Source of the DNA: a virus
Taxonomy: Monodnaviria > Loebvirae > Hofneiviricota > Faserviricetes > Tubulavirales
Reading direction: 5' to 3' (one strand)
IMG/VR virus record: IMGVR_UViG_2667527591_000022
DNA: 10,187 nt
The notes beneath the pieces were generated by a model that saw nothing but the letters and a program-made list of their open reading frames with translations, was not told where the DNA came from and ran no database searches. The position numbers and the translations under genes were made by a program. Within the stretch, counting starts at the first letter, position 1. The number at the start of each line of letters is the position of its first letter. This document shows, in pieces, positions 42 to 10,000 of the stretch.

Positions 42-1367
42 CCTCTCTGTTCATCCGTCAGACCTGCCAGTCCGGCAGGCAGGTGCAGTACATGGAAACA
101 AAGCACGGATTAAGCTGCGGTGCACACTACAGGGGAGCACGCTGTCAGCCATCAGTTTCATCAACAGGCAATTCCATCGCCTGTACGCGTCGGGTTCTGC
201 ACAGCCAGTAAGCTGGTTGCCTATGTCAGCAAAGAGCATAAGTGCCCGAAGCAGGCAGCAGAGCGTAAGTGCGCGGGGCCGGTAATGGTGCCTTTCCGCT
301 TCCTCGACCACTCGCTCACTGCGTTCGGTCGCTGGGTCTGCGGCGAGCGGTGCCATCACACGCGCAACTGAAGCATTCTGCCTCTCTGTTCATCCGTCAG
401 ACCTGCCAGTCCGGCAGGCAGGTGCAGTCCATGGAAACAAAGCACGGATTAAGCTGCGGTGCACACTACAGGGGAGCACGCTGTCAGCCATCAGTTTCAT
501 CAACAGGCAACACCATCGCCTGTACGCGTCGGGTTCTGCACAGCCAGTAAGCTGGTTGCCCATGTCAGCAAAGAGCATAAGTGCCCGAAGCAGGCAGCAG
601 AGCGTAAGTGCCCGGGACCGGTAATGGTGCCTTTCCGCTTCCTCGACCACTCGCTCACTGCGTTCGGTCGCTGGGTCTGCGGCGAGCGGTGCCATCACAC
701 GCGCAACTGAAGCATTCTGCCTCTCTGTTCATCCGTCAGACCTGCCAGTCCGGCAGGCAGGTGCAGTCCATGGAAACAAAGCACGGATTAAGCTGCGGTG
801 CACACTACAGGGGAGCACGCTGTCAGCCATCAGTTTCATCAACAGGCAACACCATCGCCTGTACGCGTCGGGTTCTGCACAGCCAGTAAGCTGGTTGCCC
901 ATGTCAGCAAAGAGCATAAGTGCCCGAAGCAGGCAGCAGAGCGTAAGTGCCCGGGACCGGTAATGGTGCCTTTCCGCTTCCTCGACCACTCGCTCACTGC
1001 GTTCGGTCGCTGGGTCTGCGGCGAGCGGTGCCATCACACGCGCAACTGAAGCATTCTGCCTCTCTGTTCATCCGTCAGACCTGCCAGTCCGGCAGGCAGG
1101 TGCAGTCCATGGAAACAAAGCACGGATTAAGCTGCGGTGCACACTACAGGGGAGCACGCTGTCAGCCATCAGTTTCATCAACAGGCAACACCATCGCCTG
1201 TACGCGTCGGGTTCTGCACAGCCAGTAAGCTGGTTGCCCATGTCAGCAAAGAGCATAAGTGCCCGAAGCAGGCAGCAGAGCGTAAGTGCCCGGGGCCGGT
1301 AATGGTGCCTTTCCTCTTCCTCGACCACTCGCTCACTACGTTCGATCGCTGGGTCTGCGGCGAGCGG
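42..1367. repeat. Direct tandem array of a 339-bp unit, about 3.9 copies; copies 2 and 3 are identical, the outer and phage-proximal copies carry a few substitutions
   Basis: Units recur at +339 (e.g. cctctctgttcatccgtcagacc at 42, 381, 720, 1059). The ORF track shows identical translations repeated at 339-nt offsets on both strands. Array ends at ...ctgcggcgagcgg (1367), 13 nt before the pI stop codon. Confidence 0.95.
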
Positions 1368-1380
1368 AGTGTCCTCTGTC

Positions 1381-2592
1381 TTATTTACCATTCACATCAA
1401 ACGAAAGCATTTTGTCAGTCAGCACATCCCCCTTTGATGCCGTTCCCGATGAGCCTGACCAGAACGTCACTTTTTCACCGTCAACATTCAGTTCCGTGGC
1501 GCTGCCGTTCCATGGCTGAAAAGCGGTATAACGTCGCACCTGACCCGCCGGACCCAGCAGCACAAAATAAGGACTTGCTCCCCTGACATATCCAGCAAGC
1601 CGCCACTCCTTTGATACCGGAAGCACATCCGGTTTTTTCTGTCTCAGCTCTGATACAACCGTAGACGCAGGCAAAGGATGTGCAGGTGTCACGGCGCTTT
1701 CAGGCACAGGAGGGACAGCGGCACTAACCTCCCGATCGCCGGAGAAATAATGTCGGGCAACGGCAATCATCGCGGTGACGAGGAAAAGAAAGGCAATCAG
1801 CTTGCCCCACGGCTTTTTCTGTGAGGTGGCCTTTTTTTCGGGTTGTTGAGATAACGGATTCATTGTTTTAAGTGTGCGCCCGGGCAAAACAGAATAAACA
1901 GCACGCATATCCACAAAACGGCCATTAAGCAGCTCCATTCCGTCAGAGAAAATGAAATTAGTGTCGTAAACGTTGTAATAATCCGCAGCCCTGATAATGA
2001 TTTTATCTACGGGGCGACGTGCCGCGTGAATCGTGCCGTCATAAAGAAACGTACTGGCAGCCACGTAATGAGGAATAATCCCCCTTTTGCCTGATGCAAC
2101 CCCTGTTTTTCCTGGTCTGAATAATTCCATCAGTGGCGTAATCACAGGAACACGTAATTCATCAAGACGGCGGCAGCGAATAATTTTAGCCCCCATCGCC
2201 TTAATTATCTGGGAATCAATCATATCTTCATGCTGCGCAATCAGATAAACATCCCAGCCCAGCTTACGGGAATGTATCAGCCAGTCAATTAACGGTAATC
2301 TGTCCTTACGGGCAAAACCACGGGTATTCAGCCATGTCGCACACTCATCAAGAAATAACGCCCCGAAGCGTGTTTTTTCATTTTCAGGGCATCCACGACC
2401 AAGAAGCTCAAAGTCTTCAATGCGGGGCATAGCCGGAATAACCGTAACGGGGTTATCCGAACCTGAGGACATATATTCAGTGTTAAGCGGAAAATTTGCC
2501 GCAACCCGTAATCCACGGCGATAATAAAGTGAGGCAAAATAAGCTGCGACAATACCTTTACCCTGCCCCAGATTACCCGTGATAACTGGCAT
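1381..2592 (-). CDS. Filamentous-phage assembly/morphogenesis ATPase (pI / Zot family)
   Basis: N-terminal P-loop TGNLGQGKG closely parallels M13 pI TGKLGSGKT; central hydrophobic segment [15 protein letters not shown] as in pI/Zot; ATG at 2592 preceded by GGGGT; position after the pVI-like gene as in Ff. Confidence 0.85.
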
Positions 2593-2608
2593 AACTTACC
2601 CCGCAAAA

Positions 2609-2968
2609 TTACTTGCCAACATTAAGCCCATTTGATTTAAATAAATCATAAACCAATCGATACACTCTATCCTTATAAAGATATATGTATGAAATAAATT
2701 GAACATGGAGGATGATATTAAAGCAGTACTGAATATTTAAAGGCAGGTAACTGAATGCAACTACAATAACATCGAGTTTATTAACATCGGAGATTTGACG
2801 AATAATAAAATTGACGGCAGATACAAGAGCATAATATGAAGTGTAGCAAAGACCAAGATAAGAAAGGAGCTTAGCCCATGCAACAGCTTTATCACCGATA
2901 ACTCCTGCAATGAAACGTAGTGATTTTAAAACAACATCAACAAAAAAAGCACCTAAAATGGCCCACAT
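2609..2968 (-). CDS. pVI-like minor virion protein (hydrophobic, 119 aa)
   Basis: Size and hydrophobicity match Ff gene VI (112 aa); sits between the pIII-like gene and pI; its ATG overlaps the pIII stop (TGATG); GAGGT Shine-Dalgarno 9 nt upstream. Confidence 0.55.
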   Translation of the reverse strand: MWAILGAFFVDVVLKSLRFIAGVIGDKAVAWAKLLSYLGLCYTSYYALVSAVNFIIRQISDVNKLDVIVVAFSYLPLNIQYCFNIILHVQFISYIYLYKDRVYRLVYDLFKSNGLNVGK

Positions 2969-8002: not shown

Positions 8003-8098
8003 CAGTGCGCACAATGACGTTATGTATAAAAAGGCCGCTGCGGTGGAGAGTATCGCAGCGGCCTTTTCAACATAACGCGTGTCACATTATGCGCACTG
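8003..8098. other. Imperfect 96-bp inverted repeat whose arms resemble the XerC and XerD half-sites of dif; candidate folded attP(+) site
   Basis: Left arm aGTGCGCAcAA-tgacg-TTATGTataaa (8004-8030) against dif GGTGCGCATAA-TGTATA-TTATGTTAAAT; right arm in inverse orientation ttcAACATAA-cgcgtgtcaca-TTATGCGCACt (8065-8097). 8003-8016 pairs with 8085-8098 (13/14) and ttatgt (8020-8025) with acataa (8070-8075), leaving a bulge in the central region. Confidence 0.5.
8029..8067. terminator. Bidirectional rho-independent terminator
   Basis: Perfect 14-bp stem aaaaggccgctgcg / cgcagcggcctttt with 11-nt loop; A-run upstream and T-run downstream, so it reads as stem plus U-tract on both strands; downstream of the secretin on the minus strand and of the regulator on the plus strand. 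Confidence 0.55.
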
Positions 8099-8150
8099 AC
8101 GTTGTGGTAGGTAAACTGAGATGCCGCGTCCTGATAATCCCGGTCGGCAC

Positions 8151-9359
8151 TCAAACTTTTTTGACCTGTAACAGAATAACCATATCCGTGCGGCTCTTCT
8201 CGTCAGACTTCTGACTCCAGCTCTTTGGCAGAAATGATAATCCTGTGTTGGCCTGCGAATCCTTGTTTTCTGCCAGACCACCCAGCAACACAATATCGCC
8301 ATCTTTCAGAGTCAGCGACGTATCCACCTCACGCTTGAGCAACGTTGGCGAATCATTCACGCCCGTATCCGTTTTGACAAAGTTACTTAACTGCTGATTG
8401 ACGTTCAGGCTGATACGCGACGACGTGATAACCGGCTTAACTTTGAATATCACCCCCGAATCACGATACGTCACGGACTGAACGGCTTTACCATCCTCAT
8501 AAGACACGCTGCCAATAACCGGAACCTGTTCACCAACAGAAAACGTCGCTTCCTTGCCTGAATCCATGCGCAGCTGTGGCGCGGATACCACCTTAAAGCG
8601 GTTATCTGTTCTGAACAGTTCATACATCGCATTCAGCGTACCGGAGCTGAATGAAATGTAATTCCCCATCGAGGATGAGGAACCCACGCTGACACCAAAA
8701 CGCCCTGATAACAGTTTTGCAGCCAGTGCCAGCCCCGAACCTTCAGAGCGCCCTGTCTGCACCTCATAAATATACCCCGTTACCACAACCCCCTGAGCCG
8801 GAACATCAACCAGTGGAACCAGCTCCTTAAGGCGTGCCAGTTCTGAACGTGTCCCCCTGAAAACCAGTGAATCCCCCTCACCTGATAAGAATGAGCCGGA
8901 AGTTACCGGAGAAGATGCAACCGCATTCTCTGAAGATACCTGTGATGAACGCCCTGTCGTTGTACCCGAAAGCACGGCGGCAAGATAAGCTGGCGAACGG
9001 TTAAATGGTGTATATACCCATGAAACCAGTTTTTCCGGCGCAGCCACGGGTTTAAACGAGCGATAATGATCCACGCCATTACGAGTCTCAACAGAAATAT
9101 TCAGTTGTCTGAGCCAGCGCACATACTCTTCACGCTGTTTTTTCTGATCGCCCGTCAGACTTAAGTCCAGCGTCACCGGACGGGTATCGCTGGCAAGTTC
9201 AGGCGGCAACGCATACTGACGCCTGAAAATATCTTCCTGAGCCAGCTGTATCGCTGCATTGAGCGGAAGACGGTCAACAAAAAAGGCCGGAGACGAGGCA
9301 TGCACAGACGCCGAAGTCAAAAAAAGAAATGCTGTCAGTAAGTTAATCAATCTCATCAT
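8151..9359 (-). CDS. pIV-like secretin (outer-membrane export channel for filamentous phage)
   Basis: Signal peptide [21 protein letters not shown]; C-terminal secretin-like region ...[23 protein letters not shown]...VILLQVKKV comparable to M13 pIV; 402 aa. Confidence 0.8.
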
Positions 9360-9397
9360 GTTATACCGTTAAGTGCTGTTTTTCAGTCATGAAGATA

Positions 9398-10000
9398 TTC
9401 CGCTTCCTCGACCACTCGCTCACTGCGTTCGGTCGCCGGATCTGCGGCGAGCGGTACCACCACACGCGCAACTGAAGCATTCTGCCTCTCTGTTCATCCG
9501 TCAGACCTGCCAGTCCGGCAGGCAGGTGCAGTCCATGAAAACAAAGCGCGGATTAAGCTGCGGTGCACACTACAGGGGAGCACGCTGTCAGCCATCAGTT
9601 TCATCAACAGGCAATACCATCGCCTGTACGCGTCGGGTTCTGCACAGCCAGTAAGCTGGTTGCCTATGTCAGCAAAGAGCATAAGTGCCCGAAGCAGGCA
9701 GCAGAGCGTAAGTGCGCGGGGCCGGTAATGGTGCCTTTCCGCTTCCTCGACCACTCGCTCACTACGTTCGGTCGCTGGGTCTGCGGCGAGCGGTGCCATC
9801 ACACGCGCAACTGAAGCATTCTGCCTCTCTGTTCATCCGTCAGACCTGCCAGTCCGGCAGGCAGGTGCAGTCCATGGAAACAAAGCACGGATTAAGCTGC
9901 GGTGCACACTACAGGGGAGCACGCTGTCAGCCATCAGTTTCATCAACAGGCAACACCATCGCCTGTACGCGTCGGGTTCTGCACAGCCAGTAAGCTGGTT
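9398..10000. repeat. Second direct tandem array of the same 339-bp unit, about 1.8 copies, same orientation as 42-1367
   Basis: Starts at ttccgcttcctcg (9398), 38 nt upstream of the secretin ATG, and ends at ...ccagtaagctggtt (10000). Repeated ORF translations in the track match those of the left array with a few substitutions. Confidence 0.95.

Follow-up and report, generated by a model that had tools for sequence, protein, structure and literature searches.

The classic n' site lies in the F–G intergenic region of phage phiX174, and the motif GAAGCGG is common to n' sites. The minus-strand origin of the Ff phages (M13, f1, fd) is a hairpin pair in the gIV–gII intergenic region that is recognised by host RNA polymerase, and the complementary-strand origins of non-Ff inoviruses are, to our knowledge, essentially uncharacterised. 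Inoviruses package positive-sense single-stranded DNA (ssDNA) (International Committee on Taxonomy of Viruses profile, PMC8491893). In plasmids, n'-pas/ssiA, a PriA-dependent primosome assembly site, lies a short distance downstream of the origin and close to a dnaA box, and is 'exposed' by DNA polymerase I extension (PMC3167613, PMC3640518; for its position see also PMC8246471, and further PMC5778457), and M13 derivatives with ColE1 rri/pas inserts (Nomura & Ray 1980, cited in PMC3640518) are reported to show that the signal can be expressed in a single-stranded phage. Here we analyse a stretch of 10,187 nt (IMG/VR record IMGVR_UViG_2667527591_000022, Tubulavirales; hereafter the window, meaning the whole stretch), in which a complete Ff-like inovirus (1368–9397) stands between two arrays of a 339-bp tandem repeat, composed of a 57-bp segment (the module) and a 282-bp part. 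From sequence comparisons, we put at about 0.65 the probability that the array is borne by the phage, that the module is a PriA-type complementary-strand (minus-strand) origin and that the array edges arose from recombination confined to the module.

Structure of the 339-bp array and its 57-bp module

The repeat occupies positions 42–1367 (3.9 copies) and 9398–~9996 (1.76 copies). In an ungapped comparison with an internal unit, the homology of the left array stops exactly at 1367 (...CTGCGGCGAGCGG) and divergence begins at 1368, while the match of the right array begins exactly at 9398 (TTCCGCTTCC...), with a mismatch at 9397. Positions 1311–1367 and 9398–9454 are two copies of a single 57-bp segment, TTCCGCTTCC...CTGCGGCGAGCGG, so that the two phage-proximal junctions do coincide with the two edges of one segment, as a first-pass annotation of the sequence had claimed. 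Six copies of this segment are present, starting at 294, 633, 972, 1311, 9398 and 9737, all on the minus strand. The left array copy (44–1367, minus strand) consists of a partial first unit (44–293) and the series 57-282-57-282-57-282-57; its outer end falls at an arbitrary unit phase (idx ~87), and its inner end coincides exactly with the module edge adjoining the gI stop codon. By sequence comparison its first three ssiA/n'-pas-like modules (294–350; 633–689, the reference copy; 972–1028) are intact, and the fourth (1311–1367) forms the gI-proximal junction. The right array copy opens with the gIV-proximal junction module (9398–9454), and the remainder (9455–9996, minus strand) comprises a diverged first 282-bp part, the module at 9737–9793 and ~203 bp of the next 282-bp part, ending at another arbitrary phase (idx ~263).

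Comparison of the six copies also upheld the observation that the junction copies are the more diverged, with 3 differences in copy 1311–1367 (idx 4, 27 and 34) and 2 in copy 9398–9454 (idx 39 and 42), compared with 0–1 in the inner copies. Most of these differences are not random decay, because C39/A42 are also found in the first, gIV-proximal copy of every relative with an array, and A27 in the gI-proximal copy of these relatives, where it matches relatives that carry a lone module (n = 0, see below). Only T4 and A34, both in copy 1311–1367, are private to the window. T4 changes the invariant GAAGCGG to GAAGAGG and A34 breaks one inner-stem pair of the hairpin described below; this gI-proximal copy is probably degenerate, and its private changes are consistent with relaxed selection where several intact copies exist.

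The array is carried by the phage

All relatives recovered have the array within the inovirus itself, between gI and gIV, with the form 57-(282-57)n, where n is 0, 1, 2 or at least 4. Escherichia coli 600029 (L003) contains a single prophage with the arrangement gIV-[57-282-57-282-57]-gI, and tandem prophages with this same array in each gI–gIV gap are present on a plasmid of Citrobacter (L005) and in E. coli 100416 (L006), the latter 98.5% identical to window positions 42–10000; both repeat the array-phage-array layout of the window. Viral and metagenome contigs showed n = 1 (L024, L028, L041) or n = 2 (L038, L039), and in many further relatives (among them L001, L022, L023 and L032) n = 0, the lone 57-bp segment lying 13 nt past the gI stop codon. 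As the circular Ff gene order places gIV after gI, both arrays of the window occupy one place on the map, the gI–gIV gap. The two array edges are identical in all eight array-bearing relatives of the window lineage (L003, L005, L006, L024, L028, L038, L039, L041), and the edges are therefore a defined, reproducible site rather than random breakage, as first proposed. In L006, the first 282-bp part (8060–8312) has a 27-bp internal deletion, giving a 312-bp unit, that is identical in both tandem prophage copies, and the tandem duplication of this prophage is therefore later than the deletion.

The first-pass annotation had placed the phage inside a pre-existing host array of the 339-bp repeat, with the 57-bp target duplicated on insertion by a site-specific mechanism or by the HUH-type replication protein (Rep) through rolling-circle transposition. 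Direct 57-bp copies do literally flank the phage genes, and Rep is an HUH-type protein of the gpA family, but the array lies within single prophages between gIV and gI, and the n = 0 relatives have one copy at the same internal position. Neither 5426 E. coli genomes nor PLSDB nor metagenome and viral scans yielded an array without a phage, and the 282-bp part occurs in 9 of the 5426 complete E. coli genomes and in 2 plasmids, each time within such phages (3 of 6 metagenome matches to a 20-mer of this part were chance matches). Host DNA in the window starts at 43/44 and ~9996, at other unit phases, and the neighbours of the 57-bp copies are phage genes and phage array rather than host DNA. Nor are the 57 bp an attL/attR core repeat, since the family has a real attP in the dif-like pair at 8002–8099, and the transposition mechanism has no support, given that thousands of plasmids without a Rep of this kind, of the ColE1 type and others, conserve the module with identical boundaries. 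We consider insertion into a host array extremely improbable: the 57-bp 'duplication' is the two terminal copies of a phage-borne array and not a signature of insertion.

Beyond these prophages, neither plasmids nor the 5426 E. coli genomes yielded a homologue of the 282-bp part, including in distant search mode. Predicted ssDNA folding of this part was not significant for either strand (z = +0.3 and +0.1), and it showed no promoter-like sites and no convincing terminator-like sites. Its open reading frames (ORFs) had no Pfam or PHROGs match, and a coding role was rejected, as the copies differ by 1-nt and 4-nt indels.

The 57-bp module in plasmids

A distant search recovered homologues of the module in at least 5000 plasmids of enterobacteria, most of them small and mobilizable, and the aligned part coincides with the 57 bp. 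Identity to ColE1 positions 1308–1371 is 52/65 (80%). The flanks are unrelated in ColE1, a Rop-type plasmid, Yersinia pestis pPst, a Col(MG828) plasmid (1.5 kb), a RepL/Rep_trans plasmid (2.75 kb) and a conjugative Erwinia plasmid, but the module boundaries in these six replicons always run from TTCCGCTTCC to CTGCGGCGAGCGG. In four ColE1-type replicons the module has a fixed orientation and lies 82–109 bp from the origin motif, with a perfect DnaA box 29 bp from the module in three of the four, a placement with respect to the origin that matches the one published for the experimentally defined ssiA. The pBR322 factor-Y site at about nt 2350–2420 is presumably this same sequence. No paper was found that pairs AAGCGG with the primosome.

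Two plasmid groups stand closer to the phage array. Plasmids of 2751 bp from E. coli and Escherichia albertii (L002) carry the closest plasmid copy of the module (710–766, 96% identity) and encode RepL and a 383-aa ORF with a weak match to Rep_trans, a rolling-circle initiator; they may be partners of these phages, as plasmids or satellites. In a 1552-bp Col(MG828) RepA plasmid (L013, module at 114–171), homology to the phage unit continues for ~13 nt past the module and takes in the first bases of the 282-bp part (TGCCACC...), which is the only hint to a source of the 282-bp sequence.

Hairpin, strand sense and proposed priming role

In the sense of the ColE1 displaced strand, 17 distinct homologues share the invariant ends CCGCTCGCCGCAG and GAGGAAGCGGAA and a predicted hairpin. 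In the consensus hairpin 98.7% of cells are paired, compared with 23–37% when the partners are slid, and its covariation score exceeded that of 500/500 shuffles, with 3 pairs changed on both sides. The ColE1 displaced (RNA II-sense) strand corresponds to the minus strand of the window, which is the coding and packaged strand of the phage, in all prophages and in 7/7 inovirus contigs, so the putatively active sense of the module lies on the strand that is single-stranded in vivo. A complementary-strand origin would have to be oriented in this way. The phiX174 viral strand likewise contains GAAGCGG, in the F–G intergenic region.

We propose, as the most likely reading, that the module would fold into a hairpin on the packaged, coding-sense single strand, bordered by the invariant ends CCGCTCGCCGCAG...GAGGAAGCGGAA, that PriA would recognise this hairpin and a primosome would be assembled, and that the primosome would then prime complementary-strand synthesis, making the module the putative minus-strand origin of the phage. 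The suggestion that the segment marks a point of replication initiation is thereby close to the explanation that we favour, with the difference that initiation would be priming of the complementary strand by the host primosome and not nicking by Rep.

An alternative is that the module acts in RNA or transcription, as an attenuator, a processing site or a stabiliser between gI and gIV, or as a packaging signal, rather than in priming. The module does lie in a transcribed intergenic gap, with a conserved hairpin on the coding strand, and Ff packaging signals are likewise viral-strand hairpins. However, the module is conserved in plasmids that are not packaged, where it lies beside origins and outside operons, it lacks a U-tract or terminator-like tail, and its invariant single-stranded blocks suggest that a protein recognises it as DNA; we therefore judge a role in RNA or packaging to be rather unlikely.

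Several observations weigh against the priming role. Covariation support is moderate, since the 17 aligned sequences are related, the fold of the single sequence is only weakly better than that of shuffles (z = -1.9, 57 nt), and the complementary strand gives a plausible, weaker consensus fold. The uniform orientation was probably inherited from 1–2 ancestral events, and would then amount to roughly a 1-in-2 test. The GAAGCGG motif is lost from the gI-proximal copy of the window. The identification with ssiA rests on position and homology, and neither the function of the 282-bp part nor its amplification is accounted for.

Array edges and a second inovirus lineage

The same array is found in a second inovirus lineage, characterised by traX and an IS110-family transposase, whose proteins are 50–59% identical to those of the window, while the 282-bp part is 91–96% identical across the two lineages. 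Members of this lineage (L004, L009, L010, L043, L044) are located on E. coli chromosomes and a Proteus IncC plasmid; the transposase gene adjoins Rep, and traX (pilin acetylase) lies between the array and gI. A single E. coli chromosome, such as that of strain 2017.06.05CC, can hold ~30 matches to units of the traX lineage, at various loci that represent many prophage copies, which suggests transposase-driven spread of a filamentous phage.

The edges of the array differ between the lineages. In the traX lineage, the ~60 nt left of the first module are a degenerate in-register unit tail (0/300 shuffles reach its score), placing the left edge at idx ~279, and the right edge is always at idx 233, whereas in the window lineage no unit homology was detected past the module on either side. 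The first-pass annotation had held that other phases of the repeat would speak against a defined site; such phases do occur in this second phage lineage, but the edges within the window lineage are constant. Diversity among units is deeper in the traX lineage (91%, compared with 96–97%). Because the array runs past the module there and not in the window lineage, it looks native to the traX lineage, and the window lineage, natively n = 0, most likely acquired its (282-57) units by homologous recombination. In such a scenario, the native gap of the window lineage would hold the module alone, as in the n = 0 relatives, (282-57) units would be acquired from or exchanged with the other inovirus lineage through homologous recombination, and unequal crossing-over between modules would then alter n and homogenise the inner copies, leaving the edge copies diverged. 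The array would be bounded by the module because the module is the only sequence that both lineages share at this place, so that crossovers fall inside it. The module variants, with traX-type C39/A42 in the gIV-proximal copy and n = 0-type A27 in the gI-proximal copy, and the variation in n (0, 1, 2 and at least 4) fit import followed by unequal crossing-over.

The contrast between a module-bounded 282-bp unit shared by the two lineages at 91–96% identity and their far less similar proteins, together with sharp boundaries in unrelated replicons that resemble precise mobility, could also be read as the mark of a recombination site (attC-like, Xer-like or otherwise hairpin-dependent) that captures and amplifies a 282-bp cassette, with priming secondary or absent. 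There is, however, no associated recombinase, the 57 bp contain no dif/cer-like core, the ColE1-type position and neighbouring DnaA box are those of ssiA, the array edges of the traX lineage lie away from the module, and ordinary homologous recombination over 57 bp is enough to account for the pattern, and we regard a dedicated recombination site as improbable. A related and bolder idea, which we hold to be unlikely though worth stating, is that the (282-57) unit represents a small cassette, selfish or beneficial, spreading among enterobacterial inoviruses via the shared pas, that it is amplified because multiple copies pay off, and that plasmids and phages exchange the pas precisely, as a unit of ~57 bp, by a process linked to the hairpin or to replication restart rather than by chance. 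The benefit, if this were true, would be faster conversion of single strands to the replicative form, or titration of PriA and primosome proteins from rival replicons that depend on PriA, for example ColE1 plasmids, Mu or microviruses.

Attachment site and outer junctions

The attP of the phage consists of inverted dif-like sites (8002–8016 and 8085–8099) around a GC hairpin (8029–8067, perfect over 14 bp), a folded arrangement in the style of CTXphi, and the window carries it in uncut form. Alignments of L003 and L006 with the window break off at window positions ~8084–8096, at the chromosomal dif (AGTGCGCATAATGTATATTATGTTAAAT) adjoining hipA, and the family therefore normally integrates through attP x dif; relatives are integrated at dif beside hipA, in many cases in tandem. 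The possibility of a dif/cer-like core within the repeat unit was rejected, the sole dif-like sites being those at 8002–8099.

The outer junctions of the window are of a different kind. Positions 1–43 are a fragment of the terminase large-subunit gene of a tailed prophage (100% match in 1046 E. coli genomes), whose homology ends at 43, with a 2-bp 'CC' overlap at the junction 43/44, and positions 10000–10187 hold the 5' end of the chromosomal bssR gene (minus strand), cut off by the junction, with its upstream region; the overlap at this right junction is 1–2 bp. Both junctions join unrelated genes to the array, one at unit phase ~87 and the other at ~263; in the reference genomes that were checked, the two flanks do not lie next to each other. 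The leftmost partial unit has 4 derived 'first-unit' variants in common with the first unit of the right array, the two differing at 4/250 sites. The simplest reading of these sequences is that the window represents ~1.05 genome lengths of a head-to-tail multimer (n at least 4) joined illegitimately to the terminase fragment and bssR, and an array would stand on both sides because the window spans slightly more than one genome length of this multimer.

The terminase|array junction was absent from metagenome contigs and from all complete E. coli genomes, and two genome contigs matching the left flank (L011, L012) carry plain terminase genes without an array. This absence counts against the outer layout that we propose and, with flanks from unrelated loci and junction overlaps of just 1–2 bp, in favour of an assembly chimera or a collapsed tandem prophage in place of a real chromosomal structure. 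Illegitimate capture of multimeric phage DNA nevertheless predicts the same picture, and the differences at 4/250 sites are those of two real array copies rather than of a collapsed repeat, so that we think an artefact unlikely, if somewhat less so than a dedicated recombination site. For annotators, the multimer reading carries a warning that repeats flanking a filamentous prophage can arise from phage in tandem or multimeric form and are not necessarily a sign of insertion.

Genes of the prophage

All genes of the inovirus lie on the minus strand except one small plus-strand ORF. The gene gI (1381–2592) encodes a Zot-type assembly ATPase (Pfam PF05707) and is followed, in order of coordinates, by a gVI-like minor coat protein (2609–2968), assigned by gene order and kept in relatives, and by a gIII-like adsorption protein with Gly/Ser-rich repeats (2968–4332; Pfam PF05357). 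Within the latter, nested 39-, 78- and 30-bp tandem repeats (3464–3715) encode a Gly/Ser-rich linker whose length varies between relatives. A gVIII-like major coat protein (4384–4644) is likewise assigned by gene order and kept in relatives, the protein in the gV position (4959–5384; phrog_30648) is by that position a putative ssDNA-binding protein, and small coat genes are also present between it and gVIII/gIII/gVI. Rep, a replication endonuclease of the P2 gpA HUH type (PF05840, E = 8e-49), occupies a maximal ORF at 5415–7514, its true start probably being near 7415, and is distantly related (~30% identity) to the Reps of fs2 and VFJ. Just upstream of Rep, a 16-bp unit (TGCACAAATGCAATTG) is repeated 2.2 times at 7486–7520 and forms an overlapping palindrome, a candidate iteron, plus-strand origin or operator. 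The divergent plus-strand ORF (7563–7751; phrog_2503), conserved in relatives, encodes a putative regulator, and the gIV secretin is encoded at 8151–9359 (Pfam PF00263).

The Phage_GPA Rep, Zot, Secretin and Coat_A matches in Pfam, the one-strand, Ff-like gene order and the dif-like attP together identify the phage as an inovirus of the dif-integrating, putatively XerCD-dependent type. Megablast gave no match to the window phage among deposited phages, and an Rfam scan of the whole window returned no relevant family.

Comparison with known systems

While the module type is well known, its natural occurrence in inoviruses, and as an array, appears to be undescribed, as no paper reporting it was found and a distant search of deposited phages recovered the module only in tiny unannotated or vector-like records. 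The phages described here would be a natural filamentous phage family with a ColE1-type putative PriA site in the correct strand sense, sometimes in multiple copies. This leads to the hypothesis that they prime the minus strand via the replication-restart primosome and not via RNA polymerase, and points to a replication signal common to plasmids and phages as a discrete module.

The closest counterpart is ssiA of ColE1/pBR322, with which the phage module has in common 80% identity over the whole module, the length, the invariant ends, the hairpin and the sense on the strand that becomes single-stranded. The phage module differs in lying in the gI–gIV gap rather than beside a theta-type origin, in its tandem arrangement with a 282-bp spacer and in having no adjacent DnaA box. 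The n' site of phiX174, the F–G hairpin that is the prototype of PriA complementary-strand origins, is similar in the proposed role, as a hairpin on packaged ssDNA that nucleates a primosome, and in the presence of GAAGCGG on the viral strand. The two have no overall sequence homology, and phiX174 is a microvirus with a single copy, the function of which was shown experimentally.

Among filamentous phages, the Ff minus-strand origin is comparable in its function, which for the module is proposed, of complementary-strand priming on infecting ssDNA, but the module differs from it in sequence, position and presumed host factor. The dif-integrating inoviruses CTXphi, fs2 and VFJ resemble the window phage in the inverted dif-like hairpin attP and in the tandem occurrence of its relatives at dif; in contrast, this phage belongs to an E. 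coli/Citrobacter lineage without a close deposited phage genome, and the phage DNA in the window is not at dif. The M13-rri/pas constructs likewise place a ColE1-type strand-initiation signal within a filamentous phage genome, but these were engineered, whereas the phage module is natural, lies in the gI–gIV gap and is conserved over several prophage lineages.

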